Shown here piece by piece: positions 24,425-44,554 of a DNA stretch of 64,000 nucleotides. Position 1 is the stretch's first letter. Each line of letters begins with the position of its first letter. The stretch comes from a bacterium (lineage in GTDB: Bacteria > Zhuqueibacterota > Zhuqueibacteria > Residuimicrobiales > Krinioviventaceae): NCBI GenBank assembly GCA_963693055.1, contig OY843751.1:5760001-5824000 (forward strand). The letters are read 5' to 3'. The notes beneath the pieces were generated by a model that did no database searches, was not told the DNA's origin, and saw only the letters and a program-made list of their open reading frames with translations. The position numbers and the translations under genes are program-made.

Positions 24425-27400
24425 TTAACGCCAGTCACCCGTAAGGGTGAATGCTGCCCAAAAGGACGGATAAGGATTGATTTCGTCATGAACGATTTTT
24501 TGTGCCATGCGTAACGCGTCAGCACGGGATTTACCTTCTGACAAATACCGGAAAAATCGTTTTACAAGCACTGCGGTAGCCAGATCATCCACTTTCCACA
24601 AACTGCTGAGCAGTGAAGAGGTGCCCGCATATATAAAACTTCGCGACAATCCTACCACTTCATCTCCGCCACGGATGGTACCCAGCCCGGTTTCACAGGC
24701 ACTCATGGCAACAATATATGCATTCAGATCAAGCGAGAAAATCTCTTCTGCCTCAAGTTTGCCATCATTCGTGGAATCTGGTGATAACAGCAATGCAGAC
24801 AAGAGCGGATTCGCGTCATCGTATTCTCCATGACAACTGAAAACCATAATGGGTGGATACTCTGAAAAAGAATACAAATTGGTTTCCGTAGCACGTTTAT
24901 TTAAAAGCATATTCACATGGGTGAAATAGCGGTTCAAACTGTTCACTTCGCGAGAAGCAAAGGGCAGGTCCCATTTTTTACTGCCAAGATCGGGATTCCC
25001 AAACGCAAGCACACTCATACTGTCTCTGTTCGTTATGTGCAAAGAATCACCCTTGTCCAGACAATACGCCATAACGGTTGCACTGGGTGCAATAGATAGC
25101 GAGTGAGACAATCCGAAATAGACCTGGTCTTTGTTCTGCAGAACAGCAAACGGCAGATAGTGCAGACTGCCCTGAGGAACCAGAACCAAATGGTCTGTCT
25201 TGTAAAGCTCAGTATCCCAGGGGCCAATAAGCTTTTCATACAAAGATTGAGACCAGTTCGATACAGACAATTGCCTGTCAAGGACCTGACGCAGTTCAAA
25301 GACATCCTTTTCAAACTGTTCCGGATCAATTTCAATCTTGCGGTAATCAATCCCTACACGGGTCAACAACCACGAATAGAGATGATCTTTATAAAGATAG
25401 AATTCCAAAATACCCACACGCGCTGGCAGTTTTTCTTTCAATTGCTCAACTGTCAAAGGATTAACAGACAGCATATCAGACAGCTCGGGATCACTCTGTT
25501 GCAGGCGAACCAATAATGAATCGCGTTCCTGCTCTATCTGTTTAACCAGATCTTCAAGCTGGTTCATTTCATCCTGCGCCAGGCTGTCATTTTTTGAGCG
25601 AAGATAAAACAACCGGGTTTGTGTTTCTTTTAACTTTGTATCCAGGCTGTCTTCTTTTGCCAACAGATCACGATTTTGTGTATTAAACGCAATTTCTTTA
25701 CTTCCCAGCATATCCAAAAAACTGCGGCTTTTTGAGCGTTCAACCAGATCAAAAGCTTGTTCAACCTGGCCCTGTTCAAGGTGCAGATCAATGAGCGCGC
25801 CGTACACATCCAGTTTATCATCTACAAAGCCCGAAGCAAATTCTTCTACTTTAATCATTGCCCGCATAGATTCAATCACATCAATTGCTTTGTAATATTG
25901 TGCGGAAACACTATCCGCATTGACACCCTGCCAGGTCTCTGCAAGATATTTGTGCGCACGCCATTGGATCTCAGGCATGTACAAATTTTCAGCAAGTTCT
26001 GCAGATTTGCCGAAAAAGACCCGCGCGCTGTCTGGACGTACATCCAGCATCTCCAAACGACCCAGTTCAAGATAACATTGCGTGGTATTGCGCCAGTCCT
26101 GAATGTCTTGAGAAATTTGTAAAGATCGATTCAAATGTTGTCGTGAAGGCGAGTTGACCCCCATACCGATCTGTATGGATGCGATATTACGAAGATCATA
26201 AGCCATGCCCCGCTTTGAATTGATTAACGAATCAATCTCTGCAGCCTGCTCAAAGCTGGATAATGCCAGATCATCCCTACCCTGCGCGCGCTGTATCATT
26301 CCAATATTCTTGTAGATGGTTGCTTCATCCTTACGGTCGCCAAGCGCAGTAGCCAGCTCGAGAGCTTTGAGTTCAAAGGTCTGCGCTTTTTCAGGATCAC
26401 CAAAGCTAAGCGCAATCAATCCACGGGTAGCATTGGCTACCTGTAACAATTTATTATCCTGCAAAGATTCAAAAATAGCGAGTGCCTGCTCCTGCTGTTC
26501 AAGCGCACTCTGATAACTGCCCATCTTCCAAAAAACATTTGCCAGATACTGTCGCGACAGTCCCTGTAATCTCACATCATCAAGCTGAACAGCATATTCA
26601 AGTGCCTGTTGTTGGTATGCCAGAGCACGTTTATAGTTGGCCATTTTTTCATTGGTATTACCCAGGTTGTGTAGCGCATCCACAAAATCCGGGGTTATAC
26701 CCAAGGTCTTGAAAATATCCAAAGCCTGACGCTGTACAACCAATGCGTCGTAATAATTGTCAAGATAAAAGAAATTTACCCGCCCTACATCTCGAAGGCA
26801 CTGTGCTTCTCCTTCCCGGTTTTCAATGGATCTGAATTTATCCAGGGCTTCTGTAAAAAGAGACAGCGCTAGTTTATATTGGCCGCCGCGTTCATAGATC
26901 AAACCGGTCTCGCGTAAAGAGTGTGCCTCTTCTTCTTTTAATCCATATTGTTCAGCCAATCGGGTAAAGCGTGCTTTGGCCTCAATGCCTTTATCAAATT
27001 CTTTATTCTGTGTATAAAAGAATGCCAGATTGCTGTATCCGTTTGCTTCCGCAGCTACATCGTTAGTGGCTTGTGCATTTTCAATCTGGGTCAATTGTGT
27101 TTCAATCGCTTTGCTCCAAAAGCCTCCGTTTACGGCACACTCGAGTATTCTCTGCTGTAACAGCTCAATGCTTTCCGAATCATTTTGCCGCTCTGCCATA
27201 CGCTGGGCGCTTTCATACATCCGGATTGCATCCTCCCACTCTCCCAATTCATACGCACTGTGGCCACGGCGTACCTGGCCTTCAAATCCCTCTTGCGCGT
27301 ATTGCTCTTCTTCATCCCGGGACATACCCCCAAAACCATATAACTGATACCCTGCCCAGAACCTGAACGAGGAATCTGCCTGAGCATAATGATTACGGGT

Positions 27401-30400
27401 CATATTTAAAGCTTCTGCTGCCGGAAAATCCTGAAGAAATTTATAATAAACGGATAAAAACTCTTTTTCACTTTCTGGCGGAAGCGGCCACAATGACACC
27501 AGCATGGATGGGACTCCGGCATATCCAAACGCCCGTTCCCATGCTATGAATGGCTGACTGAATTTTCTGAATGGAATATCGTGCTCAAAACTGAGCTGAA
27601 CAAGTCCGGCATTCAAATTCATGGCATACAAATCAATAGAAGAAAAAACCGCTAGTGACGACTGTTTGATCCTGAAACCCATTCGTGAGCGTGCAGGATC
27701 AATTTCGTTCCATTCTCCCTGCACTTGCAGATAAATCACATCCGAACGACCCAAGGGCTGACCCTGCGCAGAAAAACTGTTTTGCTCCTGGCTGGTCATG
27801 GGAAGAATGACGGTATACCCTTCATCTTTTAATACCTGTGAAGACAAATCCCGTGATGCAAAAAAGATACGTTGCCCCTGAATTTTGCGCCGATCATAAG
27901 AATAATAGTAATCTGTCAAGCTGGTACTGGTAGTAATATCCATATCATCCGGATAGTTCCGGTACAACATTGCGCTCCAGGGAAGCAAGAGCAATTCATT
28001 AGGAGGTACAACTACAAGATGTTTTACAGGCGATTGCGCCTGGTCCAGTACTGCAAACAAGTTGATTCCCGACAAGTCCGGTATTTCATCAACACCCGTC
28101 TTAAACGCAGTGAATACCTGATCGGCAAATCGGTTCAACTCGTGCCGGGAAAGCTGGTAACCAATATAATTAATCTGATTTTTAGTAACCAGCCAGGTTA
28201 ACAGCTGATCTTCTAATTCTGTAAAATAGAGCAGGGCTTCACCCGGTCTGATCTTTTTTTGCAGCATTTCACACGTTACCGGATTCACACGCACAAGAGT
28301 CTCCAGTTCCGGCACTTCAAGACGTGCGTCACTGAGTAGGGTCTCATATTCCTGCTTATAAGAGTCCAGCTCTTTTCTTTTTTCTATAATATCTGCATAC
28401 GGAATATCAAACCGGTTCCTCATTTGCAGCAGGCTGATTTCCAGTTCATTAATTGTCCGTTGTAAAAACTTGGCATTGCCATAATAGATCTTGTGCCGCT
28501 CTTTACGCAAATCAATATTTTCACTGCTTACCATATCCAGATAAAGTTTTGCCCGCATTTGTTCAGACATGGCAAGCGCACCGTTAAGATCATTCTTTTC
28601 AACCATATATCGAATGACCCGCCGATAGGGTTTTTGATAGGTTGTACGCAGGGTTGCCGCATTTGCACCGGTAATTTTGGCAGGATGCGCTTGCAGTACA
28701 TCAATGGCTTCAATAAAATACTCGTAAGGATCTTTTTGAATAGAATACTTGACTTTGACATCTCGGGGCATCATGGAAAGCAGATCACCCATGTGGGTAT
28801 CTATTCTCCATAACATATCGTAATACGCGTTCCGTATTGCCATTCTTCGAGCATTTTGTAAATGCGCATAAGATTCGTCTGCATTGCCCAATTTGTAAAA
28901 CAACTTGCCCAGATCATATTCTATAGAGCATTCTTCTTCCAGCAGCTCGTATGCTTTGGCAGTTCTAAGCGCTTCTTCCAGATAGGTTTGCGCATAAGTG
29001 CCGTTTTCAAAAATAAAAAGGTTAGATTCTATATCACTTTTCAGGTCTTCCTGCTCATCAAAATGGATTAATGAAAAATCAGCAAGATAGCGATACATCT
29101 CTATCTTGATCTTTACATAACGAAATTCTTCATCCTGAATACGATCAAGGGCATCGTTAATATTTTCCGCCGCATCATTTTGATATTGCAAAAATTGATC
29201 TTTTACCTGTGTATAATCAAGCTGATCTTCCAGAATGGCAGCATTCATAGCCATTACAATTCTTGCAAGATTTGAACTGTTTAACAAAATTCCCCTAAGC
29301 AGCTTTTTATCCTTACACAGTTTCAAAGATTCGCTAAAACTGCCCCATGCATTTTCATAATCACCATTGAGAAAATACAAATAGCCTATATTGTTCAACA
29401 AGGTCGCCTGAGATGCTTTATCATCCTGTTTCTTAAACAGCACCATTTTTTTATCTAAATTGGTAATGGCTTCTTTGTAATTTTTTTCATAACTATAGCT
29501 TGAACCCAGAATGGTATAAACAAGTGCACTTTCATCCTCTGTAGTAAATCTCAAGGCCGCCATAGGCAGCATATTGTTCAAATTCACAAAAGGAACCGGC
29601 ACATGCAGACCTAATAGTCCGACTTTGACCCGTGAAGGATCTTGCTTTATCTCTTTGACCTTTCCGCTTTGCAGCAACTCGAGCGCTTGTTTGGCATAAT
29701 AAATAGCATCCTGCGGTTCTTCCAAAATCAAATAATTCAGCGCAATACTTCGATAACTCCGCATCAGGTTATCATACATGTTTTTGCGTTTATAAATATC
29801 AGCTACTTTTTGAAAATACTCGACAGCAAACTCGCTCAAACCGGTATCCTGATATAACAATGCCAAACGGCTTAAATTTAACAGTACGTGGCCTTCATCT
29901 TCCAGTTCAGTATATAGCTGAATTGCCCTAAGCAGATATTTTTCACCACCTACTACATCTTCAACTTTGTAAGAGCAATGCCCCATGCGCTCATAAATAA
30001 GAGCCTCGCGTTGTTTATCATAAAAGGTTGAATCATATTTGAGCTTGATGTGATAATATTCATATGCTTTGGCATAACCATATTCACCCAAATTATAATA
30101 ATTGTTGGCCAGGTTAAGCGCAAGGTTGGCTTCAAGATCGGGATCAACCTCTGCATCGTTTAAACCAATAGCCTTGGTCAACTCGTGAATAGCGCGTTCA
30201 TAATATCCGCGTTTGGGTTCTACTTTGGCAAAGGTCACAATATCATATACATAGTCAAATGGAGTTCGCAAGGTATTCCACAGCCTGATATAAAATGGCT
30301 TGGGTTTGGCACGTTCACGCGCTTCGGCCTGCTCCATCATTTCATAATTATAACTCAGGGTCAAATACGGCTGAACCATGGTATAGTCTAAGGCTAGCGC

Positions 30401-32869
30401 ACGGGCAATACGGTAGCTGGACTGGTTCAACATTCTTGTATCGAGCGCGTCTGGTTCGTTGTAAAGTTCTGCTTTTTCCGTGCCCTTGTATGAATAGGTC
30501 AGTCCTAAACAATAGAGGATTACCTGCTGCTCGGGATAATCTTTGACCAGTTGCTCATATTCAGTAACCGCATCATCAATTTTCCGGAGATAGTACAAGC
30601 ACTCTATATATCCACGGTGCGCATGCAAATTAGTGGTGTCCATCTCCTTGGCGCGTTGATAGCGCAACAATGCCAGACTGAACTCTTGTGCAGACTTTAA
30701 CTCATCTCCGGAATCCAACAGCGCCTTTAACAACCGATTCCAGGCTATTTCTGAAAGATCTTTACGATTGCTGTTGTAACGATTTACCAACTGCTCAAGT
30801 AATGAAAAGGCACGCAGGTTCTCGCCCATCATCAGCAAAGACTCTGCAATAGATAAATTGGCAGTAAAAACTTCCTCTACCAGATCGCCAAATAACGATT
30901 CTACCATTTCATATTCCTGAATTGCCGAGGCATAATCCCCCGCGTTAAACAGGATTTTACCAATACGAAGTTGTGCCGCTGCCGCTAGCAGTGGAAACTG
31001 AGCATATTGCCCAACAATCTCACGATACCGGCTGATCAGATCAAGCTCATTGTTGGCATCTGTTACCAGTAAATCCAGAATGCGATCACGGGCGGGAACC
31101 ATCCAGTCACGTTGTTCCGGATATTTTTGAACGACCTGCAAGTATGCCTGTATAACTTCATCCTGTGTAGCAAACCGGTTGAACACGTCTCCTATTTTCA
31201 ATTGGGCTTCCGCGCAATAAAAGTTCTGATCCGGAAACGTTTCCAATACCTGTTCATATGCCTTAAACGCCTGCGCGTCTTGTTTTATCTGGTAGAACAG
31301 ATCGCCCAGCACTATATATGCGGCAGACATGGGTTCGGCTTCCTGCTTGTATTTTTCAAGAATGGCATCCAACTCGGGTTTTAGCAGTTCCAGCCTCTTT
31401 TGCCCTGATCTTACGTCCCTGGCCTTTAACCCCAATTTTAACATTTCAGCATAGGCCGCCAGTGTTTTTCGTTCAGGAAAATTCTTTAACAAGATTTCCA
31501 GATATAAATTCGCCTGCTCAGGATAGTCGAGCAATTTAAAACAAACTGCTATTTCATACAGCGTTTGCGGAGAAACATCGGTAGCTGTTCCAAAATAGTC
31601 AATAACTCTTTTAAACGCCAGTTGACGGTCCCACAAAAGTAACCGCTGCTGCTTGGTCATAGATTGCGGGTCCCAGTCTAAAAACAACGGGCCAAGAGTC
31701 AAACGCGTCATTTCAGGAGACTGTGCATAAATGGAATCTGCCAGTTGATACTGTGCAGAAGGATTGTCAACACGCGGTATATACCCGGTTGACGGGAAAG
31801 ACCAAATATCGAGGTTGCCGCCCCGGTCAGAGGTAAAATATATCCTGTCGTTAGAGCCGGTATAAGGCTGCATTACCTGTTCACCACCGGAAGTGAGCGG
31901 CATGGCATATGATGCCATTTTCAAATTAAAAGACTCGCTCAATACCTGCAACATGGGATCACTGACAAACATTAATTCAATAGGTGATTTAAAAATCTGG
32001 GCTTCCCAAACGGCAGCGCGGTCCGTAGGCGTTAACGAGCCGTCTTTATTGGTATCAAACTCGTTCCGTAAAAAAACAACCTGCGTGGCTTCTTTGGTCC
32101 AGCTCGGGAACCCGTCAATGGCCGGTCCTTTAGTCAACTGATATGTGGGATATTCACGCGGGTCCCAAAGTAAGGTATCTTGGCCTGTGGGTTTTGGGCC
32201 CTTGAGATTGATAATAAAAATATCACCATTATTTTCCGGACCGTCTCTGAAAGAAGTAAAGGCTATCATTTGCAGGTCAGAACTCCACATGGGGTGGGTA
32301 CCACCCTTGTAGGTCAATTGTAATTTGACGTCTGTATGCTCATTATAAAACCAAAGTTCTTCACTGCCACTACGGTCAGAGACCCAACAAATTTTTTTAG
32401 AATCCGGAGACACGGTAGGATATCCGTCATACCCCATATAATCGGTAAACCGCTCAGGGTCTCCTTTGGGATAAAGCCTGCCCTTGATCTCGCGCAGATG
32501 CACCATCCAGATATCGCCCGCGGCATCACTGCGCTGTGAAACAAATACAATCGTCCGGCTGTCAGGATACCACACCGGATAATAATCGTCTGCTTTATGG
32601 AACGTGACCTGAATGGACCTTCCGCCTGCAGTGCTGCGGATCCAGATATCAAAATTATCAGACTGGCGCGATACATAGGCCATCCATTTGCCGTCAGGAG
32701 AAATACGTGCAGACAAGTCAATATCGGGGTGGGTGGTTACCTGCTGATAATCCAGTTTTCTATTTTCTGGCGTTTGCGCAAAGCTGAACGAACTTGACAA
32801 AAACGACACTGTCAAGACAAGTGTTAGGAATATGTGTTTGATCCTAAATTTCATTATTTTCCTGACCAT
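24425..32869 (-). CDS. Giant exported TolB-like (PD40) beta-propeller + TPR + tandem CHAT-domain protein (likely start at Met6, nt 32854)
   Basis: Signal peptide; PD40 repeats (SPDGKWMAYVS, WYPDSRTIVFVS, FTSDRGGNLDIW); many TPRs; C-terminal CHAT with FSCHG and MSACETG; an earlier degenerate CHAT copy. Confidence 0.88.
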   Translation of the reverse strand: MVRKIMKFRIKHIFLTLVLTVSFLSSSFSFAQTPENRKLDYQQVTTHPDIDLSARISPDGKWMAYVSRQSDNFDIWIRSTAGGRSIQVTFHKADDYYPVWYPDSRTIVFVSQRSDAAGDIWMVHLREIKGRLYPKGDPERFTDYMGYDGYPTVSPDSKKICWVSDRSGSEELWFYNEHTDVKLQLTYKGGTHPMWSSDLQMIAFTSFRDGPENNGDIFIINLKGPKPTGQDTLLWDPREYPTYQLTKGPAIDGFPSWTKEATQVVFLRNEFDTNKDGSLTPTDRAAVWEAQIFKSPIELMFVSDPMLQVLSESFNLKMASYAMPLTSGGEQVMQPYTGSNDRIYFTSDRGGNLDIWSFPSTGYIPRVDNPSAQYQLADSIYAQSPEMTRLTLGPLFLDWDPQSMTKQQRLLLWDRQLAFKRVIDYFGTATDVSPQTLYEIAVCFKLLDYPEQANLYLEILLKNFPERKTLAAYAEMLKLGLKARDVRSGQKRLELLKPELDAILEKYKQEAEPMSAAYIVLGDLFYQIKQDAQAFKAYEQVLETFPDQNFYCAEAQLKIGDVFNRFATQDEVIQAYLQVVQKYPEQRDWMVPARDRILDLLVTDANNELDLISRYREIVGQYAQFPLLAAAAQLRIGKILFNAGDYASAIQEYEMVESLFGDLVEEVFTANLSIAESLLMMGENLRAFSLLEQLVNRYNSNRKDLSEIAWNRLLKALLDSGDELKSAQEFSLALLRYQRAKEMDTTNLHAHRGYIECLYYLRKIDDAVTEYEQLVKDYPEQQVILYCLGLTYSYKGTEKAELYNEPDALDTRMLNQSSYRIARALALDYTMVQPYLTLSYNYEMMEQAEARERAKPKPFYIRLWNTLRTPFDYVYDIVTFAKVEPKRGYYERAIHELTKAIGLNDAEVDPDLEANLALNLANNYYNLGEYGYAKAYEYYHIKLKYDSTFYDKQREALIYERMGHCSYKVEDVVGGEKYLLRAIQLYTELEDEGHVLLNLSRLALLYQDTGLSEFAVEYFQKVADIYKRKNMYDNLMRSYRSIALNYLILEEPQDAIYYAKQALELLQSGKVKEIKQDPSRVKVGLLGLHVPVPFVNLNNMLPMAALRFTTEDESALVYTILGSSYSYEKNYKEAITNLDKKMVLFKKQDDKASQATLLNNIGYLYFLNGDYENAWGSFSESLKLCKDKKLLRGILLNSSNLARIVMAMNAAILEDQLDYTQVKDQFLQYQNDAAENINDALDRIQDEEFRYVKIKIEMYRYLADFSLIHFDEQEDLKSDIESNLFIFENGTYAQTYLEEALRTAKAYELLEEECSIEYDLGKLFYKLGNADESYAHLQNARRMAIRNAYYDMLWRIDTHMGDLLSMMPRDVKVKYSIQKDPYEYFIEAIDVLQAHPAKITGANAATLRTTYQKPYRRVIRYMVEKNDLNGALAMSEQMRAKLYLDMVSSENIDLRKERHKIYYGNAKFLQRTINELEISLLQMRNRFDIPYADIIEKRKELDSYKQEYETLLSDARLEVPELETLVRVNPVTCEMLQKKIRPGEALLYFTELEDQLLTWLVTKNQINYIGYQLSRHELNRFADQVFTAFKTGVDEIPDLSGINLFAVLDQAQSPVKHLVVVPPNELLLLPWSAMLYRNYPDDMDITTSTSLTDYYYSYDRRKIQGQRIFFASRDLSSQVLKDEGYTVILPMTSQEQNSFSAQGQPLGRSDVIYLQVQGEWNEIDPARSRMGFRIKQSSLAVFSSIDLYAMNLNAGLVQLSFEHDIPFRKFSQPFIAWERAFGYAGVPSMLVSLWPLPPESEKEFLSVYYKFLQDFPAAEALNMTRNHYAQADSSFRFWAGYQLYGFGGMSRDEEEQYAQEGFEGQVRRGHSAYELGEWEDAIRMYESAQRMAERQNDSESIELLQQRILECAVNGGFWSKAIETQLTQIENAQATNDVAAEANGYSNLAFFYTQNKEFDKGIEAKARFTRLAEQYGLKEEEAHSLRETGLIYERGGQYKLALSLFTEALDKFRSIENREGEAQCLRDVGRVNFFYLDNYYDALVVQRQALDIFKTLGITPDFVDALHNLGNTNEKMANYKRALAYQQQALEYAVQLDDVRLQGLSRQYLANVFWKMGSYQSALEQQEQALAIFESLQDNKLLQVANATRGLIALSFGDPEKAQTFELKALELATALGDRKDEATIYKNIGMIQRAQGRDDLALSSFEQAAEIDSLINSKRGMAYDLRNIASIQIGMGVNSPSRQHLNRSLQISQDIQDWRNTTQCYLELGRLEMLDVRPDSARVFFGKSAELAENLYMPEIQWRAHKYLAETWQGVNADSVSAQYYKAIDVIESMRAMIKVEEFASGFVDDKLDVYGALIDLHLEQGQVEQAFDLVERSKSRSFLDMLGSKEIAFNTQNRDLLAKEDSLDTKLKETQTRLFYLRSKNDSLAQDEMNQLEDLVKQIEQERDSLLVRLQQSDPELSDMLSVNPLTVEQLKEKLPARVGILEFYLYKDHLYSWLLTRVGIDYRKIEIDPEQFEKDVFELRQVLDRQLSVSNWSQSLYEKLIGPWDTELYKTDHLVLVPQGSLHYLPFAVLQNKDQVYFGLSHSLSIAPSATVMAYCLDKGDSLHITNRDSMSVLAFGNPDLGSKKWDLPFASREVNSLNRYFTHVNMLLNKRATETNLYSFSEYPPIMVFSCHGEYDDANPLLSALLLSPDSTNDGKLEAEEIFSLDLNAYIVAMSACETGLGTIRGGDEVVGLSRSFIYAGTSSLLSSLWKVDDLATAVLVKRFFRYLSEGKSRADALRMAQKIVHDEINPYPSFWAAFTLTGDWR

Positions 32870-33405
32870 GAACCATCGCTTTTTTGTATCAATGTGCCGT
32901 CCGGCGAATTATCTATATTCAATTTTGCAAAAATCTTGTTGCGTTCCTCATCATCTGCAGCAGCCGCAGATGGGTTAATTGCAAGTATACGCTCATATAT
33001 CACCTTACGGTCCTGATTTTCTTCAGTTACAATCTGATCTATTATGCGTTTATACTGAGAATCTGATTCATACTTTTCAGTTGGCAATATTTCCAGATAG
33101 CCCTTGTTGTTTTCACCCAGAACCTGTTCTTTTTTAAACTCGTCAATTTCATCCTTGTTAAACTTGCGGTTTTGAACAGATTCCAATACATTTTGGCGCT
33201 GTGCAGACATGGTTTGTGTCTGACCACCGCCAACCGAACGGGTAGATGCAATAACCCATGTATTGCTTTCAATCTCTGCAAACGCACCTAACACTTGTTC
33301 TTCCAGCATAGTTTTATCACCACTAATGCTGATTTCATCAGTAGTAACACTACAATTTATATATACTAAAGTAGTTAGTATAAGAAAAATAACAATTGTT
33401 CTCAT
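32854..33405 (-). CDS. DUF1318 (YdbL-like) putative lipoprotein
   Basis: Hydrophobic leader ending YINC; LGENNKGYL, ENQDRKVIY..I, GTLIQ..DGSW typical of YdbL/DUF1318. Confidence 0.75.
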   Translation of the reverse strand: MRTIVIFLILTTLVYINCSVTTDEISISGDKTMLEEQVLGAFAEIESNTWVIASTRSVGGGQTQTMSAQRQNVLESVQNRKFNKDEIDEFKKEQVLGENNKGYLEILPTEKYESDSQYKRIIDQIVTEENQDRKVIYERILAINPSAAAADDEERNKIFAKLNIDNSPDGTLIQKSDGSWSGK

Positions 33406-33422
33406 TTAATTCTCCTACAAAC

Positions 33423-36400
33423 TTAATTTATTGTTGATGCATTCAATATCCGATCAATCACAAATTGAAGAGGAGTTCTTGAAATATTATAACTATTTCC
33501 TTCTAATTTGATTGGAAGATACCAAGGTCTACCTAATTCAATTGAAGTGTACATAAATCCATGTCGTACTTCAAAGGTGAATAGCTTTGGTGTATATCCC
33601 TGGTTAATAAGGAATCTTGTAAATCTTATTCCTGAATCTTCTTCTTCAGGATCCAAGGAAAGCAGTAAATTATCTGCAACACGTGACCCTATCTCGGTAA
33701 TGTAAAAATAACCTCGAATATCCAGTTTCTCATTGGGATCCACTCCAGTTCCTTCAAATTGAGCGTTGCCATTTATAACGCCCAAACTCTCTTTTCGCTT
33801 TAATCCCGCCAGCAACCGGTCCGAGTTGATACCTGAAAAATGGGCAGACAAATTATAGGTCGCTTCTGCCAGGTTGCCGCCTGCAAGGTTAACAGAGATC
33901 CTGCCGCCCAGGTTTCCATCATAAACCGTTGCCATATATGAAGGGATTTCCACCCGGCCGCCTCCCAGCACAGCTTCAAATTCAAAGTTGTCAATTTCAT
34001 AACCCGCGGCTTTTATCTTTTCAATACTCAGGTACGACATGTTTTCAAGCGAATTACGATAGTAATCCCGATAAGCCAGATAATCAATTGAACCATCTGT
34101 GGGAGTCTGTATAGGCGCCTCTTTGTCCGCCAGAAAAATCCCTTTAACCAGATCCATACGTTGATGTACTTTTAAATCCGCATTGATATTGCTGACAGCT
34201 GTTTCAGCCGGCAGCAATATAGTCAAGTCCTTGGTATTGACATTCGCAAAAATGTCCAGTAATGCCGTGTCCATATTGACGGTTGCACTGAGATCGGTTT
34301 TACCGTCCAGTTGAATATCCCGGGTTATCTGCAGTGGCTCTTCAGCATTTTGATGAAAATCCAATGTTGCAGAAATGAGTGGGGCCGTATCTACATTTTC
34401 TATATTGGCATAAAACTCGCCCTTTGCCAGCAATTCAGGCAAAAAGATTAGACCATTTTCAACCCGAAAACTCTTTAAATCATTGCTGTGAACATCCAAT
34501 GATATCACATTATCTAAAAAAGCCGCCCGTCTTACATTATCCGTCAGGGTTGTATCAATTTTTAATGAAACGCTAACATCCGCTTTATTATCTGAATTTA
34601 ATCCTGCATCCACATTCAAACGAATTCCCGCAATTGAAATAAACTGATCAGGATAATGAACCGACGTCTGCTCTGTAAAGACCTTGCTTTCAAGATCGAA
34701 AACCGGCAGTTCACCGGCCAGATTGCCGACAACATTCGCGGTGACATGGGTTGCACCGGTTACCTTTAAACTGGCAAACTGTTCTTTCATACGCCGCGGC
34801 ATCCAGTCCAGAACAGGTGCATGGTACAATGCCAGGTCTTGCAGTTTGACCTTAAAATCGGTTTTACCCACATCAAACGTGCCATTTAAACTGGCTGTTA
34901 AAATCTGGTTCAGTTTGACAGATAAATTATGAATATCCAGATGCTGGAACAAGGTGTCAATACCGCACAGCAGGTTGGTTGTAAAATGAATTGGAGGAAA
35001 ATTTTCGGTTTCATATTGCATGGGTATCATCAAAGAATCTGTGGCAAAATCGAGATGGGTAGAGATAGAATCCAGCGTTTGAATGCCAATATCCAGCTTT
35101 AGGTTTGCGGTTGTTTCAAGCGGCAGGGGTACCAGATTTCTTGTATCGATATCGGAAACCTTGACCACCCCATTACCTGTAATTGATTGTAAGGTCTTTT
35201 CCGCGCCCAGTGTAAAATGAGAATAAAAGGTGGTTCCCAATACATTGGCAACCTCAAAACCCAATTCCACATCTCTGGGCATCATATACTCGTTTATACC
35301 CGCCTCTAGATTTAATCCGCCCTTACCGGTATATATTTCAAGAGTATCGCTCAAGCCATAATACACAGAATCAAAATTTACAGATACTGTTGCGTTTAAA
35401 CTTTGCAATCCCTTAAAATTGAGTCTGCCGTCTGATCTTGCCAGCAAATTCAGGTTCACCAGCTCTGCCTGTCCCTGGTTTAAGGTCAAGCCAAAATCGA
35501 GAAAATCCGCAAAGGCCTGAAATTCCAATCCTTCTGTGGAAGAACTGTCTGGCAGCGTGCCTTCAACACGGGTTCCCGCAAAGGTAATAGCAGCATTGGG
35601 ATTTTTAAAATATATATCCGGGAACATCGAATCGGGCAGTACAGACCTTCCCAGGGACAAAAGCTGCTGCACAGGTATTCTGCTCTTGTCTACGGAAGCA
35701 GAAAGATGCGGGGGCCACTGTTTGTAAAATCCATCAACTTTGATGCTAGAACCCAGCCAGGTTTCATCTCCTACCTTGACGGTCAAACCGGGGACTAGTA
35801 CTTTTTCCTCTTCAACAAGAACATGCACATCACCAGACACGGTTATGGGATAAATCAACGGAATGACAGGAAAATCAGGCACTGCCGAGGAACGAAACTC
35901 GAGGTCACTGACCTGTAAAAACAGAGAGGCATCCAGACTATCCAGTGTGGCAATTCTGACCTTGCTGTTCAAAGCAATCATACCTGTTACAGACATTTCA
36001 TCACCGCCCGCAACATACTGGCTGAATTCAAAAACGGCCTTGTCTACATTCAGTTCCAGTGCGGCTGCCAGGGCACTGTCATTCGCCATTACATCACCCT
36101 GGGGCACATAAATATCATCCAGACCCACATCCAAATCTGCAAGATACAAAACTTGACTGGTTAGACTGTCCTGCATTTCCATGCGGAATTTTGTATCTTG
36201 CAGCCGAAATTGCTTCAAGGCAATACTAACCGGCAATACCGGTGTTTGCAACGAGTCCGCTGGCGGCTCTTTTACCGTTGTTGTATCCTGAGGTGGAGCA
36301 ATCATGTTGATAAAAATATCCGGCGAGTTGAGCTCAATCTCGTCAATGACAACACGCTTGTGAAACAGCTCACGAATATTGTATTTTAAAATAATTTTGT

Positions 36401-36719
36401 GTATAGATGCAGACTGGACCGGAAAATCATCCGGCAAGGCCTGGTCTTGCTCTAGTGGAAAGAGTGCGATATCTGTAAATTCAATGCCTTTCAGCAGATT
36501 GATATCTACACCCTCTATGGTCAGATTTCGGTTAAACTGTTCCCTGACAGTTTTTATCGCCAAACCTTTAAAATACTCGGGTGGAAAAAATAGATAAACG
36601 ATTATAATTAATAAAAGGATGAGCCCAATAAAACCCAAACCCAAAAACAACCAGAATCGGAAAAAACGTCTCCAAAACCCCCTTTTAACTCGTTTTTCTT
36701 TTTTTGTTCCAGTTGCCAT
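33423..36719 (-). CDS. AsmA/YdbH/TamB-like intermembrane bridge protein
   Basis: Basic N-terminus plus single TM anchor, AsmA-type N-domain (NRNLTIEGVDINLLKGIEF..I...IDEIELNSP), long all-beta body, C-terminal YDGNLGGRISVNL...HFSGIN. Confidence 0.75.
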   Translation of the reverse strand: MATGTKKEKRVKRGFWRRFFRFWLFLGLGFIGLILLLIIIVYLFFPPEYFKGLAIKTVREQFNRNLTIEGVDINLLKGIEFTDIALFPLEQDQALPDDFPVQSASIHKIILKYNIRELFHKRVVIDEIELNSPDIFINMIAPPQDTTTVKEPPADSLQTPVLPVSIALKQFRLQDTKFRMEMQDSLTSQVLYLADLDVGLDDIYVPQGDVMANDSALAAALELNVDKAVFEFSQYVAGGDEMSVTGMIALNSKVRIATLDSLDASLFLQVSDLEFRSSAVPDFPVIPLIYPITVSGDVHVLVEEEKVLVPGLTVKVGDETWLGSSIKVDGFYKQWPPHLSASVDKSRIPVQQLLSLGRSVLPDSMFPDIYFKNPNAAITFAGTRVEGTLPDSSSTEGLEFQAFADFLDFGLTLNQGQAELVNLNLLARSDGRLNFKGLQSLNATVSVNFDSVYYGLSDTLEIYTGKGGLNLEAGINEYMMPRDVELGFEVANVLGTTFYSHFTLGAEKTLQSITGNGVVKVSDIDTRNLVPLPLETTANLKLDIGIQTLDSISTHLDFATDSLMIPMQYETENFPPIHFTTNLLCGIDTLFQHLDIHNLSVKLNQILTASLNGTFDVGKTDFKVKLQDLALYHAPVLDWMPRRMKEQFASLKVTGATHVTANVVGNLAGELPVFDLESKVFTEQTSVHYPDQFISIAGIRLNVDAGLNSDNKADVSVSLKIDTTLTDNVRRAAFLDNVISLDVHSNDLKSFRVENGLIFLPELLAKGEFYANIENVDTAPLISATLDFHQNAEEPLQITRDIQLDGKTDLSATVNMDTALLDIFANVNTKDLTILLPAETAVSNINADLKVHQRMDLVKGIFLADKEAPIQTPTDGSIDYLAYRDYYRNSLENMSYLSIEKIKAAGYEIDNFEFEAVLGGGRVEIPSYMATVYDGNLGGRISVNLAGGNLAEATYNLSAHFSGINSDRLLAGLKRKESLGVINGNAQFEGTGVDPNEKLDIRGYFYITEIGSRVADNLLLSLDPEEEDSGIRFTRFLINQGYTPKLFTFEVRHGFMYTSIELGRPWYLPIKLEGNSYNISRTPLQFVIDRILNASTIN

Positions 36720-36770: not shown

Positions 36771-38156
36771 TTATTCAAACAAATAACCTTTTTGTGAATT
36801 AGGTAATTCTGGTTTCTTTTCAATAAACTGTTCTTTATTCAACGCATAAAGTGGTGAAACTTCAACCAGGTCCGTTACATTTCCATCTGAATCTTTATTC
36901 ACCGTCAACCCGGCACTCTCCATCCATTCACCATACAGATTCAACTGGTCCTGTTTTGCGGTTTCGGGCGAATCAACACCAGTCTTGTTTTTAATGGGAC
37001 TGAAATCGTTTTTCCGCTCTGTTTCCATCACCATCACTTTTTTTGCAAAAGGAAACGCGTCAAAAATAAACTGCTCAAATTTAAATCCGTTTGGAGTTTC
37101 AGGATTTACCAACTCTCCCGAATCGTTTAAATATGGTATTTTCTTGTGCGCAATATGGTATGGAAGCTGGATCTTTTCATCATGAATCCGCTGAAAAAAA
37201 TCAACACTGAATACATGCATGCCAATACTTCCCTGACCAAAAGTCAACTTGCCTTTATCGTTGACGGCAAGCTTTTCTTCATCGCTGAGTTCGGTATATT
37301 CAATGACCACGGTTTTGCCGTTCATTTCACCAATATTGCCAAGCTTTTCAAACGGATCATTTTTATATACTGTCTTGGCAGACATATCCGCATTGTTCAA
37401 TTCATGATACCCAATGAATGCAGGATCACAAACATTCACCAGGGGACTGTCAACCTGGAAATAATAAAGACTCTTTAATCCACGATTTTGCATGTCGTCC
37501 AGAATCTTGTTTTTAAACAACGCGCGCAACATGCCACCATGACCATCGGGAGACATGGCTACCCTATCTTTAGATTCCAGAAACATTTTGCCATTTTCAT
37601 CAAGTGGTGGCAGCATACCTTGCTTAAAAAAGATGATGGTTGACGCGTCTTTACCAAAAAAGCCGTTTGATTTGAAAAAATCAACCGTATCCTGATAATT
37701 CAATTCACTGGTCATAATATAAAAAGGAATAACCGCATTCAACTGTTTTTCACGGGCAAGGATCTTTTCCGTATGAAGCTGAAACAATGTCTTGCCGGTA
37801 ATGGGACCCACCGGAAAGGTTCCTTTGGGGCCGTCAAATCCCAAACGGGTTCCTTGACCACCGGCAACCAAAAGTGCTCCCACCTTATTATTTGCAATGA
37901 GCTTTTCTCCCACAGCTACGGCTGTATCATATTCCTCAACTTGCTGTGGGGTCTCCGGCAACTCGATAACATCTGTTGGATTCAGTGTGCCGGGTGTATA
38001 GTGTCCTTCATGCTGATTTTTCAACAATCCGGCACAATAATTTACAATATCAAAATCTAAATCTTCAAGTCGTTCTGTAAATATCTGGTTATCATCAAGC
38101 TCTGATAAATATTTTAAAACATGTTCCTGTCCATGTTCACTAAACTGATTTAGCAA
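36771..38156 (-). CDS. UDP-N-acetylglucosamine pyrophosphorylase, UAP/UDPGP family
   Basis: LVAGGQGTRLG..GPKG, YIMTS, SPDGHGG, QVDSPL, EYTE, KFEQFIFD, FSPIKN; TTG start with AAGGA SD. Confidence 0.88.
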   Translation of the reverse strand: MLNQFSEHGQEHVLKYLSELDDNQIFTERLEDLDFDIVNYCAGLLKNQHEGHYTPGTLNPTDVIELPETPQQVEEYDTAVAVGEKLIANNKVGALLVAGGQGTRLGFDGPKGTFPVGPITGKTLFQLHTEKILAREKQLNAVIPFYIMTSELNYQDTVDFFKSNGFFGKDASTIIFFKQGMLPPLDENGKMFLESKDRVAMSPDGHGGMLRALFKNKILDDMQNRGLKSLYYFQVDSPLVNVCDPAFIGYHELNNADMSAKTVYKNDPFEKLGNIGEMNGKTVVIEYTELSDEEKLAVNDKGKLTFGQGSIGMHVFSVDFFQRIHDEKIQLPYHIAHKKIPYLNDSGELVNPETPNGFKFEQFIFDAFPFAKKVMVMETERKNDFSPIKNKTGVDSPETAKQDQLNLYGEWMESAGLTVNKDSDGNVTDLVEVSPLYALNKEQFIEKKPELPNSQKGYLFE

Positions 38157-38198
38157 TTTTCTTCCTTTTCTGCTGTGATTCCTGTCAACTATTCCAGA

Positions 38199-40583
38199 CT
38201 ATTTTTTTTTATTCTTGACCGGTTTGGCTTTAATTGCAAGTTCCAGTACTTCTTCAAGCGTTTTTACAGGATAAAAAGTCATTTTCTTGCGTGTATCTTC
38301 GGGAATCTCTTCCAGATCATCTTTATTTTTATCAGGCAAAATAACATGTTTAATTCCGGCCCGCTGAGCAGCAAGCATCTTTTCTTTAATACCACCAACC
38401 GGTAATACTTTACCACGCAAAGTAATTTCACCGGTCATAGCCAGATCGCTCCGTACCGGTTTTTTTGTTAGCAGAGAGACCAGCGCAGTGGTCATGGTAA
38501 CACCCGCAGATGGGCCGTCTTTGGGAATGGCTCCTGCAGGTACGTGCACATGTATATCTGATTTGACGAATATAGTTTCATCAATGCCAAGCGCTTCCGC
38601 GTTTGAACGAATATAAGAAAGTGCCGCCTGTGCGGATTCTTTCATCACATCGCCCAATTGTCCGGTTAATATCAATCCTTTGCTGCCGGTCATACGTGTG
38701 GCTTCAATGAACAACACATCACCACCCGAAGGGGTCCAGGCCAGTCCGGTTGCAACACCGGGTCTACCCAGGCGCTCTGCAACTTCTGAATAAAACTTTT
38801 TCGGACCCAAAAGCTCAACAACCTTTTCAGGCGTAATAGAAACTTTATCTTCATTGCCCAAAGCAACCTCTTTGGCAACCTTGCGACAAATGTTTGCAAA
38901 CTGGCGTTCCAGATTTCTCACACCCGCCTCACGGGTATAGTCTGCAATAATACTTTTTACGGCGGCCTTGGTAAAGGATATATGTTTACGTTTCAATCCG
39001 TTTTCATGGATCTGCCGGGGTATCAGGTATTTGGTTGCAATATGTATTTTATCCTCTTCAATATATCCGGGTAGCTCAATCACTTCCATTCTGTCACGCA
39101 AAGGTGATGGAATGGTATCCAGCACATTCGCAGTGGTAATAAACATTACGCTCGACAAATCAAAAGGAACATCCAGATAGTGGTCCGAAAAGGAAAAGTT
39201 CTGTTCCGGATCAAGCACCTCCAACAATGCCGATGCAGGATCGCCACGAAAATCCTGGCCAATTTTATCCACTTCATCCAACATAAAAATGGGATTATTA
39301 CTACCTGCTGTTTTCAGGCCCTGAATGATTCTGCCGGGCATAGAACCTATATAAGTACGACGATGACCGCGGATTTCGGCTTCATCGTGTACACCACCCA
39401 GAGAAATGCGTACAAAATTCCTTCCCATAGAGCGCGCAATAGACCGACCCAATGAAGTTTTTCCTACTCCCGGAGGCCCTACAAAACAAATAATGGGACC
39501 CTTGGTGTCGTTTTTCAATTTACGTACTGCAAGGTATTCAATAATACGCTCTTTGATCTTTTGCAAACCGTAATGATCTTCATCAAGCACATTCTGGGCT
39601 TTATCAATATCAAGATTATCTTCGGTCGCAACATTCCAGGGTAAAATAATCATCCAGTCAAGGTATGTGCGTGAAACCGTATATTCTGCCGCACCCGGCT
39701 GCATTTTAGACAGACGGTCAAGCTCACGCAGAGCTTCATTTTCCGCTTCTTCGGGCATATTTGCTTCAAGAATCTGTTCTTCCAGTTCTTCAAGTTCAAC
39801 CGAGCGCTCATCGCTCATGCCCAGTTCTTTTTGAATGGCCCGCAACTGTTCACGCAAAAAGTATTCTCGCTGATTTTTACCCAACTCGCTCTGGACTTTA
39901 TCCTGTATCTTGGAGCCCATCTCCAATACTTCGAGTTCGCGATTCAGTAAAACCGTAAGTTTTTGTAGACGCTGTTTAATTGTTGATGCTTCAAGTATCG
40001 ATTGTTTTTCCTCGACCGATATGGTGAGGTTTGAAGCAATTAAATCCGCAAGCTTGCCGGGATCAGTTGTATTCACAATCACAACCTGAAGTTCATCGGG
40101 CAATTGCGGTACCAGTGAAACCACTTTTTGGAATTGCTGGCCTACATTACGTTTAAGCGCTTCTATTTCAGTGGTTTCTCTATAAGCATCTTCTTTGGTC
40201 TCTACATTGTAAACAAAATAAGGATCGGTAGAAACATTTTCTTTTAATTTTATTCTCGAGATTCCCTGCACCAAAACACGCAAAGAACCATCAGGAAATT
40301 TCAACATACGCAGAATTATTGCGGCTGTTCCAAATTGGTATATATCATCTGTTACCGGGTCTTCTGTTTCAGGGTCTTTTTGTGCAACCAGGCCAAGAAT
40401 TCTTGAACCCGCTATCACGTCATTTATCAGCTTTACTGATTTTTCCCGTGCAACAACAAGCGGAGTTACAATATTTGGAAAAGTCACAGTATCTCTTAAA
40501 GGCAATATCGGCAGCTCCGCAGGAACTTTGGTTTCCATCTCAGAGTCTGATTCAATCGTTACATTGAAATTGTTTTCATCCAT
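38199..40583 (-). CDS. lon: ATP-dependent protease La
   Basis: Lon N-domain, [29 protein letters not shown] (Ser), GGIKEK (Lys). Confidence 0.97.
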
Positions 40584-40613
40584 GTTAACTCCTGAATCTA
40601 CATTTCGATTAAA

Positions 40614-41060
40614 TTATTCTTCATTTTCACTTTTATTATTTATAGGTACTTCAATAACCTGACTATCTTTGGAAATTACAATTTCCAATATTCCATCAAT
40701 TAAATTGGCATCGATCTGATTATGTTCCATAAATTGTGGTATATGGATGTTTTTCTGAAAACTGCCATATTTAATTTCAAGCTGATGATAAGACAGTCTG
40801 TTTTCCAACATTTTTTCTCGACGGACCCCGCAGATCCGTATCATACCATCTTTGACTTTGACAGAAATATCATTTCTGTCTACACCGGCGAGTTCAATTT
40901 TTATGATTACAAAATCCTCAAACTCGACGATATCCGTATTGGGCTCCCAACGTGGTGATGTTTGCGACACCTCTGAACAAAACTGAGCAGGCCGCTTTTC
41001 TCTCCAGTAAGAGACCGAATCGGTAAATTCTCTAATGACTTTAACGATATGTATGGGCAT
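40614..41060 (-). CDS. Hsp20/alpha-crystallin small heat-shock protein
   Basis: WEPNTDI, ELAGV, EIKYGSFQKNI.IP, ANLIDGILEI; directly upstream of lon. Confidence 0.88.
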   Translation of the reverse strand: MPIHIVKVIREFTDSVSYWREKRPAQFCSEVSQTSPRWEPNTDIVEFEDFVIIKIELAGVDRNDISVKVKDGMIRICGVRREKMLENRLSYHQLEIKYGSFQKNIHIPQFMEHNQIDANLIDGILEIVISKDSQVIEVPINNKSENEE

Positions 41061-43240: not shown

Positions 43241-43269
43241 AAAAAAAAAGGGGCTTTTTTGCCCCTTTT
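43241..43269 (-). terminator. Intrinsic terminator at the stop of the MinD-like gene
   Basis: aaaaggggc-tttttt-gcccctttt stem with an A9 run (U tract on minus strand). Confidence 0.7.
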
Positions 43270-44554
43270 ACTTTTTAAAAATTGGATCCAAATGTCTTAC
43301 ACTGCAGGGATGTCCTCCATCCTGATATTCGCAATCTCCCCAATAAATGCAATTCACAGAACAAATGGTATCGCCTTCTTTGAGATTGGCTTTGGGATAG
43401 TCTTTGGAATCTTGTTTAACATTCCGAATAACTTTGGTTTTTTGTCTAAATCCCTGCCATCCTTCTTTGCCCAAAAGACCAACCGAGATCAACCTGGCCA
43501 GGCTTTTGGATGCTTTTGATTTTGGATTATCGAGTATAAAGGGCCGAAGCTCTTTGAGAGACTTTCGAACCTGTTCATCAAAATCTACATAACCAATATA
43601 ATCTATTGTTATTCCCAGCAGCTCACTTGCCGCTGTTTTCAAGGTGTCACCTTCTTTAATCTCATCCGCAGAGTGGACCATGTTTAATATAAGTTTGGGT
43701 CGAAAAGAACTCAGCTTTTCTTGAATTTGTTTCGAAGCGGCCGGATCAATTGTTTTCACTTGTTCAATAATATCGTACATGGTATTTGACATGCGGCTCT
43801 GATTCGTGCCAATCTGACTCTCGATAATATCTAACACTCGCGTGTTGCTCTTGAATTCACGCATCAGCATGCGCATAAAAGAGACTTTGAGGAAATTGAA
43901 CGTATCTTGAATTGCAATGGGATCCGGGGTGGTTACCAGAATTCCCTGGTCTGCTGCTATAAAGAAATCAATCACATTATAAGATGAACCGGCGCCAAGA
44001 TCAAGCAGAATAAAATCTGCATTGAGATTGTGTAAATGAGAAATAAATCTTTGCTTTTGAGAATACTGGGGATTCGCAAGACCCAATGTTCCGCATGCAC
44101 CGCTAATGAGTTTTAAATTTTCAATTGGCGTGTCCAGCAAAATATCTTCAAGACTCTCTCGCTGCATGGTATAAAAATGATAAAACGTGTATTCTGGATC
44201 CAATATACCCATACAGGTGTGAAGGTTGGCGCCGCCCAGGTCAGCATCTACAACAATAACCTGGTTTCCCAGGGCTGCTAATCCTATTCCCAGCGATGAA
44301 GTCAAACTGGTTTTACCAACACCGCCCTTGCCTCCGCCAACAGCAAAGACTATTTTTTCTTTGGGTACCGCTGCCTTTTGTTCAAACAGTGAGGAAAAAT
44401 CTTCCAGTTCACCAGCTTTAACCCATTCCTGTGTATCTTCATGGAATATCAAATCACTTTGTTGAAACTCGCCCTTTTTGGCAAGGTTTCTCAATTCTGA
44501 TGTCGAATACGGTCCTTTTTCAACATTATCAATCTTGACAAACAGCTCTGACAT
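43268..44554 (-). CDS. GYF_2 (DUF4339) domain + MinD/FlhG-family ATPase + Cys-rich C-terminal tail
   Basis: N-terminal EKGPYS..EL...KKGEF...LIFHED..EW; GGKGGVGKT; DADLGGANLH; LDLGAG; tail CSVNCIYWGDCEYQDGGHPC. Confidence 0.82.
   Translation of the reverse strand: MSELFVKIDNVEKGPYSTSELRNLAKKGEFQQSDLIFHEDTQEWVKAGELEDFSSLFEQKAAVPKEKIVFAVGGGKGGVGKTSLTSSLGIGLAALGNQVIVVDADLGGANLHTCMGILDPEYTFYHFYTMQRESLEDILLDTPIENLKLISGACGTLGLANPQYSQKQRFISHLHNLNADFILLDLGAGSSYNVIDFFIAADQGILVTTPDPIAIQDTFNFLKVSFMRMLMREFKSNTRVLDIIESQIGTNQSRMSNTMYDIIEQVKTIDPAASKQIQEKLSSFRPKLILNMVHSADEIKEGDTLKTAASELLGITIDYIGYVDFDEQVRKSLKELRPFILDNPKSKASKSLARLISVGLLGKEGWQGFRQKTKVIRNVKQDSKDYPKANLKEGDTICSVNCIYWGDCEYQDGGHPCSVRHLDPIFKK

Follow-up and report, generated by a model that had tools for sequence, protein, structure and literature searches.

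The locus described here lies on the minus strand (-) of a 64,000-nucleotide stretch of contig OY843751.1 (assembly GCA_963693055.1), which is called the window in what follows and to which all coordinates refer. It comprises three consecutive genes, referred to as the trio. The first (33423..36719) encodes a 1098-residue AsmA-like protein with an N-terminal membrane anchor and a predicted repeating β-groove, identified using Pfam, AlphaFold2 (AF2), Foldseek and VIA. The second (32854..33405) encodes a 183-residue lipoprotein with a cysteine at position 18 (Cys18) and a YdbL/DUF1318 domain at residues 84-183. The third (24425..32854) encodes a protein of 2809 residues, here called the giant, which contains in order a signal peptide, a PD40 propeller, a tetratricopeptide repeat (TPR) solenoid, a dead CHAT protease domain, a further stretch of TPR, and a CHAT domain with an intact catalytic dyad.

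An earlier note on this DNA, made from the sequence alone, had described this gene order, a 17-bp gap, a TAATG overlap, and a CHAT protein of about 2.8 thousand amino acids (kaa) with a signal peptide, and all of these are confirmed. The gap (33422-33406) separates the AsmA-like gene from the lipoprotein gene, and the overlap (32852..32856) joins the lipoprotein stop (TAA, 32856-32854) to the giant start (ATG, 32854-32852). This ATG, which has AGGA 5 bases upstream, is taken as the start of the giant; the mechanical open reading frame (ORF) caller begins 5 codons earlier. Each of the three genes is single-copy in the genome. The trio is embedded in a long co-directional gene run with intergenic gaps of 15-102 bp, and its tight spacing is therefore weak evidence by itself, so that the case for a functional unit rests on conservation. 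Predicted promoters and terminators are at or below shuffle level (45 against 43.0; 9 against 17.4).

The predicted bridge protein and the lipoprotein

The AsmA-like protein, called the bridge protein below, matches Pfam AsmA (PF05170) at residues 26-145 with an E value of 1e-13, and also DUF748. It has a single N-terminal membrane helix, placed at residues ~18-45 by hydropathy and 15-44 in the AF2 model. This model, built from 38 sequences, has a mean predicted local distance difference test (pLDDT) score of 85 and 58% strand, and the membrane helix leads into a near-continuous β-meander. Across its 45 long strands the hydrophobic fraction of the two faces is 0.67 versus 0.29, the maximum after shuffling being 0.644. 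Foldseek gives LPD-3 (9cap) as the best match and Vps13 (6cbc) at probability 1.00, and VIA aligns residues 46-278 with Vps13 6cbc (Z 9.8, root-mean-square deviation (rmsd) 5.1, 180 residues aligned). The earlier note had made its proposal depend on a β-taco groove in this protein; what the model predicts is a membrane-anchored β-meander matching Vps13 and LPD-3, in which a continuous hydrophobic groove is putative. Binding and transfer of lipid would be in keeping with such a fold. The fold matches listed for the model include no solved TamB or YhdP chain, and the NCBIfam TamB match is weak. Among ESM Atlas look-alikes of the AsmA-like protein, the named members of the top cluster are mostly Spirochaetota.

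DUF1318 (PF07027) is found on residues 84-183 of the lipoprotein with an E value of 4.5e-11, and the lipoprotein profile matches the solved YdbL structure 28oj (E 0.001). In a set of 36 lipoproteins, the domain and the lipidation-type Cys18 are present in all 36. The layout from the N-terminus is Cys18, an alternating strand (residues 19-29) that is likely YnbE-like, a helix, a linker and the YdbL domain. No YnbE-type family appeared for the lipoproteins among the 25 of 35 Pfam families listed. The linker carries a conserved motif at residues 50-56 (33238..33258), ending in an Arg56 that is invariant in 36/36 lipoproteins, and is a candidate contact or cut site. There is also a second type of lipoprotein-DUF1318 fusion, found in two-gene operons with an upstream gene of 660-790 residues and with the giant absent (L169:9081-9680, L170:8740-9330, L171:8929-9531 and P0196).

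The fold of the bridge protein also allows the trio to be read as a device for protein traffic, in which surface lipoproteins or outer-membrane proteins, rather than phospholipids, would be moved or assembled, with the giant as the arm that handles the substrate. The AsmA-like proteins GspN (PMC12802150) and TamAB (PMC12800296) are reported in protein handling. The weak TamB match fits such a role, as does the presence after the trio in Desulfosudis of an SH3-like gene and an HExxH protease gene. Against this, the DUF1318 lipoprotein ties the trio to the YdbH-YnbE-YdbL type of system, with its genetic link to lipid homeostasis (PMC11126948), and no β-barrel or secretion-system gene is evident as a conserved neighbor. 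Protein traffic is consequently an improbable reading.

Co-inheritance of the trio

The linkage is not unique to this genome. In a neighborhood survey of 61 related genomes, the lipoprotein is present in 49, and all 49 also have the giant. The two genes lie within 1 kb in 42 of these and within 2.5 kb in 45; of the other four, two have the lipoprotein gene at the end of a contig and two have the genes genuinely apart. The AsmA-like gene is directly upstream in 28 of 30 loci. In the wider phylum (candidate division KSB1, 151 genomes), DUF1318 occurs in 110 genomes and the TPR core of the giant in 107, with both in 103, neither in 37 and only one in 11. The giant match in G045, an unrelated 883-residue protein, was removed before counting. 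One of the genomes with DUF1318 only (G061) has a classical split operon of the YdbH/YnbE/YdbL type, with a separate small lipoprotein and no giant.

The same association is found in two further groups. In Desulfobacterota, to which Desulfosudis oleivorans belongs, 201 genomes were compared, and three features are confined to the same 8 genomes: the AsmA subtype (E <1e-25), the full-length lipoprotein (E <1e-34) and the giant core (E <1e-50). One of these 8 is the chosen center genome, and two of the three search profiles contained Desulfobacterota rows. A further 42 genomes have other DUF1318 types, none of them with a giant. The trio has the same order in six of the 8 and is scattered in two; in Desulfonema magnum, the AsmA-like and lipoprotein genes are adjacent and the giant is apart. 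In Nitrospinota (61 genomes) the lipoprotein occurs in 34 genomes, among them every one of the 30 that have the giant, and the two genes are never adjacent; the AsmA-like gene, sought in 2 of these genomes, is present elsewhere in both. Two named Magnetococcales proteins are among the more distant giants. Co-retention in the absence of physical linkage argues for a shared function. The conclusion is that the linkage is not due to chance, and that the trio is passed on as a unit in three bacterial groups.

These counts bear directly on the simplest alternative, namely that an unrelated periplasmic protease, the giant, happens to sit in an old gene cluster. In its favor, the unrelated Lon and uridylyltransferase genes are likewise conserved upstream within the class, and the trio genes are unlinked in Nitrospinota, in Desulfonema magnum and in family f11. 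It is nevertheless very improbable, given the exact match of presence and absence in Desulfobacterota (8/8 and 0/193), the near-exact match in Nitrospinota despite unlinked genes, and the recurrence of one gene order in two phyla whose flanking genes differ.

The earlier note had also suggested a similar triplet in Leptospira, and this could not be confirmed. The candidate tags LIC10123-10125 led only to a FecR lipoprotein, an uncharacterized protein and a 135-kDa TPR protein. No Leptospira name occurs among 30 proteins looked up or 78 genome loci, the latter having been scanned with one short pattern only. The tables for L. borgpetersenii JB197 (PMC8055020 supplements) show no annotated triplet: DUF1318 is assigned there to LBJ_RS12660 alone and CHAT to LBJ_RS15290 alone, and LBJ_RS16000 is the AsmA-annotated gene. 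A CHAT-less Leptospira version is possible, because the two hypothetical genes flanking the DUF1318 gene have about 5x its read count and change with it (PMC8055020). Leptospira LipL45 also carries a FecR domain (PMC9694704).

Several variant loci were noted. In family f11, genome G052 has a FecR-domain gene between the giant and the AsmA-like gene (L034:5557-6351), with the lipoprotein elsewhere. In three related genomes, a gene of about 515 residues, membrane protein-like by eye, lies between lipoprotein and giant (L040:5683-7221, L041:6392-7951), and in L057, L058 and L052 two or three unrelated genes separate the AsmA-like gene from the lipoprotein, the lipoprotein-giant adjacency being kept. 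In Desulfobacterota a small exported gene, SH3-like by eye, follows the trio (L148:18435-20039, with similar cases in L164, L165 and L168), and L148 also has a gene with an HExxH motif. In G160 (L158:8543-12508, L143) the trio is adjacent and the frame of the giant stops after 225 residues, the rest being a separate locus, which may reflect a frameshift, a rearrangement or an assembly error.

Directly upstream of the trio in the window (36771-41060) are HSP20, Lon and a UDPGP-family uridylyltransferase, and the last two are similarly placed in many genomes of the class. A ParA/MinD-like ATPase carrying an N-terminal GYF_2 domain is encoded at 43268-44554. The same genome has a second, unrelated TPR-CHAT gene (G000:C1:4756153-4757907) with 26% identity to the C-terminal part of the giant. 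Matches in plasmid records were only to generic propeller or TPR, with 0 records at 80% coverage.

The giant and its protease domains

The giant is predicted to be exported, as the earlier note had held. A Sec signal peptide is read by eye at residues 1-26 (32777..32854), and by a simple family heuristic (not SignalP) the N-terminus is signal-like in 97 of 120 homologues, compared with 22 of 600 internal controls; the other homologues comprise 3 fragments, 10 proteins whose called start lies too far downstream and 10 that do not pass. Hydropathy shows only the N-terminal signal peptide, with the propeller directly after it and no membrane helix. The propeller itself (residues 36-355; 31790..32749) is TolB-like and of the PD40 type, as identified by Pfam, AF2 and Foldseek (TolB, rmsd ~3.3). 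It has a DxNxDG loop at residues 268-279, conserved in the alignment, which may be a calcium loop. The AF2 model of residues 26-1200 (pLDDT 89) has the TolB-like propeller followed by a TPR solenoid. The best-conserved stretch of the entire giant is not the protease: the conservation profile peaks in the TPR core at residues 725-960 (29975..30682), which has conserved Asn, Tyr and Glu positions. ESM Atlas clusters of PD40-TPR proteins of 1139-1171 residues resemble the N-terminal half of the giant and possibly belong to a CHAT-less version of the trio.

Two hydrophobic elements are inserted in the TPR arm. The first is an aromatic amphipathic helix at residues 853-875 (30230..30298), seen in the model, whose hydrophobic moment is in the top 0.6% of 18-mers; it belongs to the KSB1 type only and is absent from the Nitrospinota and Desulfobacterota types. 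The second is a protruding hydrophobic β-hairpin at residues 1075-1091 (29582..29632), identified from the model and the alignment, and a candidate for extending the groove or dipping into the membrane. Its strands have pLDDT <50 in an otherwise confident model, and its sequence is conserved across the alignment rows shown. A single alternating strand takes its place in the giants of Nitrospinota, of Desulfobacterota and of more distant members, and the Desulfobacterota strand resembles in pattern the groove-augmenting strand of E. coli YnbE (PMC11126948). The alternating hydrophobic pattern is found in 53 of 84 distant representatives (a set from which five generic multi-TPR matches and proteins <2450 residues were excluded), a count that has no shuffled control. 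The insert is likely to be an unpaired hydrophobic strand or hairpin.

The C-terminal CHAT domain (PF12770; residues 2535-2807, 24434..25252) is matched by Pfam with an E value of 9e-74. Its His2675 (24830-24832) and Cys2720 (24695-24697) align with the corresponding His and Cys of the TPR-CHAT protein 7zoq and of Csx29 7y9x, and with this intact dyad the domain may be proteolytically active. The internal CHAT domain (residues ~1525-1842, 27329..28282; E 4e-16) is 22% identical to it and has Gln1712 and Phe1756 at the dyad positions; the dyad is present in this domain in 0 of 113 long homologues, and it is therefore described as a pseudo-protease. The same 113 comprise 93 homologues with an intact C-terminal dyad, 15 with substitutions in it and 5 that have lost it by truncation, and the dyad motif is found in 79 of the 84 distant representatives.

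At six loci in three lineages the giant forms only ~1,620-1,840 residues, the C-terminal half being missing from the locus. A FastTree analysis of the TPR core places the dead label as two changes nested among intact proteins, a single origin also being possible; truncated rows P0036, P0058, P0083 and P0088 were omitted, and P0041 was classed as truncated, not dead. The lipoprotein remains adjacent at all of the dead-dyad and short-giant loci. The protease is thus common but dispensable, having been lost repeatedly while the trio persists, and the constant part of the giant is its N-terminal half. The earlier note had spoken of a periplasmic TPR-gated protease tied to a lipid bridge, as scaffold, sensor or processing enzyme. 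The link is conserved well outside the present genome; the protease is not the conserved core, and because several lineages that keep the trio have a decayed dyad or lack the C-terminal half, a scaffold outranks an enzyme or a sensor. The dead second CHAT domain, the conserved hydrophobic strand or hairpin and the repeated loss of the protease had all been missed.

The protease losses provide a comparison for the lipoprotein linker, for which loci with a giant running off the contig were excluded. In a profile built from intact lineages, and with only about four independent protease losses behind the comparison, the linker motif scores 3.13 bits per column where the giant is intact (58 lipoproteins), against 1.34 where it is dead (10 lipoproteins) and 0.13 where it is short (6 lipoproteins). 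Control regions in the same classes drop less than the linker (N-terminal region 3.14, 2.41 and 1.81; DUF domain 2.27, 1.60 and 0.99). This could mean that the giant acts as a maturase, cutting the fused lipoprotein near Arg56 and freeing a YnbE-like anchor from its YdbL cap, so that the bridge can then close. Escherichia coli reaches the same separation of YnbE and YdbL with two genes and DegP. On this reading, the decay of the motif beyond that of the control regions where the protease is lost would be expected, as would the fact that the giant tracks this lipoprotein subtype only. Furthermore, separase cleaves after Arg (PMC11506125), and in E. coli an excess of YdbL inhibits the bridge and DegP degrades free YdbL (10.64898/2026.03.16.712125). 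However, the losses are few and the profile comes from intact lineages, the motif is retained in the f4 lineage, where the giant is dead or short, and most lineages with a dead giant still have Arg56. In addition the trio outlives the protease, and other fusions exist with no giant. We therefore consider a maturase unlikely.

The giant might instead be a sensor for envelope damage or phage, monitoring the bridge and, when triggered, cutting a signalling substrate, as has been proposed for the periplasmic protein DdvA. TPR-gated CHAT proteases do act in signalling and defence (as in the Csx29 match, and in DdvA; PMC11506125), the dyad is retained in most lineages, and G052 has a FecR-domain gene between giant and AsmA-like gene. 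On the other hand, the locus maps, in which ORF starts were read and the flanks mostly not scanned against families, show no evident conserved anti-sigma, sigma, CRISPR or other defence neighbor. The giant is a single-copy gene among housekeeping genes across the phylum, unlike the patchy defence islands; it has no membrane helix to relay a signal, and loss of the protease is tolerated. A role as sensor is hence improbable too.

Proposed mechanism and comparison with known systems

On balance we think it probable, if not strongly so, that the trio is a trans-envelope lipid bridge in which the giant is a periplasmic scaffold at the outer end and the protease an optional regulator. To judge from its fold and family, the AsmA-like protein would sit in the inner membrane and offer a long hydrophobic groove. 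By analogy with E. coli YdbH-YnbE-YdbL, the N-terminal strand of the outer-membrane lipoprotein would be added to the end of this groove, with the fused YdbL domain as a cap. The propeller and conserved TPR core of the giant may then bind the outer end of the groove, and its hydrophobic strand or hairpin may extend the groove or dip into the outer membrane. Where the His-Cys pair is intact, the TPR arms could gate cleavage of a partner, possibly at the lipoprotein linker, and protease-less lineages would retain the scaffold role.

Several points weigh against this interpretation. The genomes compared are related, and the co-occurrence counts are thus not independent. The fold matches of the bridge protein are modest (best Foldseek E 4e-5), and the top VIA rows are generic β-barrels. 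The lipoprotein N-terminus compared with YnbE reaches an hhalign probability of only 14%, and for the AsmA C-terminal profile against the single E. coli YdbH sequence the value is 0.3%, with no detectable similarity. YnbE-YdbL-type fusions occur in G167, G199 and G195 in genomes with no giant, so that the fusion alone does not require one. The count of strand patterns in distant giants is uncontrolled, as said above. Since the dyad is intact in most homologues (93/113 and 79/84), proteolysis presumably matters in most lineages, and contact between the proteins of the trio is something that we infer.

A bolder variant is that the bridge is switched on by its own protease: the giant would dock via the YnbE-like strand and the live CHAT domain would clip off the YdbL cap, giving lipid flow on demand. 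We regard this as speculative and unlikely; if true, it would be a case of proteolytic gating of a Vps13/AsmA-type bridge.

The trio is real, and is undescribed in the literature searched, no description of it having been found among the matches listed (subscription papers lay outside the scope). The docking of AsmA-like bridges at the outer membrane and the control of flow through them are open questions even in E. coli, and the trio points to a third docking solution beside TamA and YnbE stacking, in the form of a huge co-inherited periplasmic partner. It also suggests a housekeeping context for a large family of annotated and unexplained CHAT proteins, found in 107 of 151 KSB1 genomes, Nitrospinota, Desulfobacterota and Magnetococcales. 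The natural variants with intact, dead or missing protease make the choice between scaffold and enzyme directly testable.

Parts of the giant recall other systems. Like TolB-Pal, the locus encodes a predicted periplasmic PD40 propeller beside an outer-membrane lipoprotein, and the propeller matches TolB. Unlike TolB-Pal, the giant gave no match to the TolB N-terminal domain and no Pal or TolQRA neighbors were seen, and binding of the propeller to the lipoprotein is hypothetical. With Csx29/craspase and separase, the giant shares a TPR-gated CHAT fold with an aligned dyad, and its combination of a dead and a live protease domain is reminiscent of separase. Those proteins are cytoplasmic, whereas the giant is predicted to be exported and its two CHAT domains are ~690 residues apart, mostly TPR. 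The giant as a craspase is ruled out: the Csx29 equivalog scores 40.9 bits against a cut-off of 300, and none of the 16 genes of the window that were scanned is a cas gene.

The earlier note had known of no characterized example. In the literature searched this holds for a CHAT protein tied to a bridge; a structural precedent for a periplasmic TPR-CHAT does exist in DdvA of Myxococcus xanthus, an anti-sigma factor that is a membrane protein in a defence island (PMC11506125). Like DdvA, the giant is a TPR-CHAT protein with a His-Cys pair that is predicted to lie outside the cytoplasm. It differs from DdvA in its propeller, its pair of CHAT domains and its co-inheritance with a bridge, and is expected to be either soluble or anchored by a lipid. 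The giant as a DdvA-type anti-sigma factor is ruled out, there being no cytoplasmic anti-sigma domain or membrane helix.

The closest comparison is with E. coli YdbH-YnbE-YdbL, where YnbE adds a strand to the last YdbH strand, YdbL binds the C-terminal helix of YnbE (PMC11126948; 10.64898/2026.03.16.712125), and excess YdbL is harmful, free YdbL being degraded by DegP (10.64898/2026.03.16.712125). The earlier note had called the 1098-residue protein YdbH-like, which stands as regards an AsmA-like bridge accompanied by a YdbL domain. It is an analogy only, with no sequence match to E. coli YdbH, and because there is no detectable C-terminal similarity the protein is described here as AsmA-like and not as a shown YdbH orthologue. 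Membership is supported for the YdbL domain only, and by analogy the trio may work in the same way. The two systems agree in gene order and tight spacing, with an inner-membrane AsmA-like protein first, then a lipoprotein and then a DUF1318/YdbL domain. The differences are that here the lipoprotein and YdbL domain form one chain, that the AsmA-like protein is longer than YdbH (1098 versus 879 residues), and that the trio has a co-inherited third partner of 2.8 kaa, which has no counterpart in E. coli.

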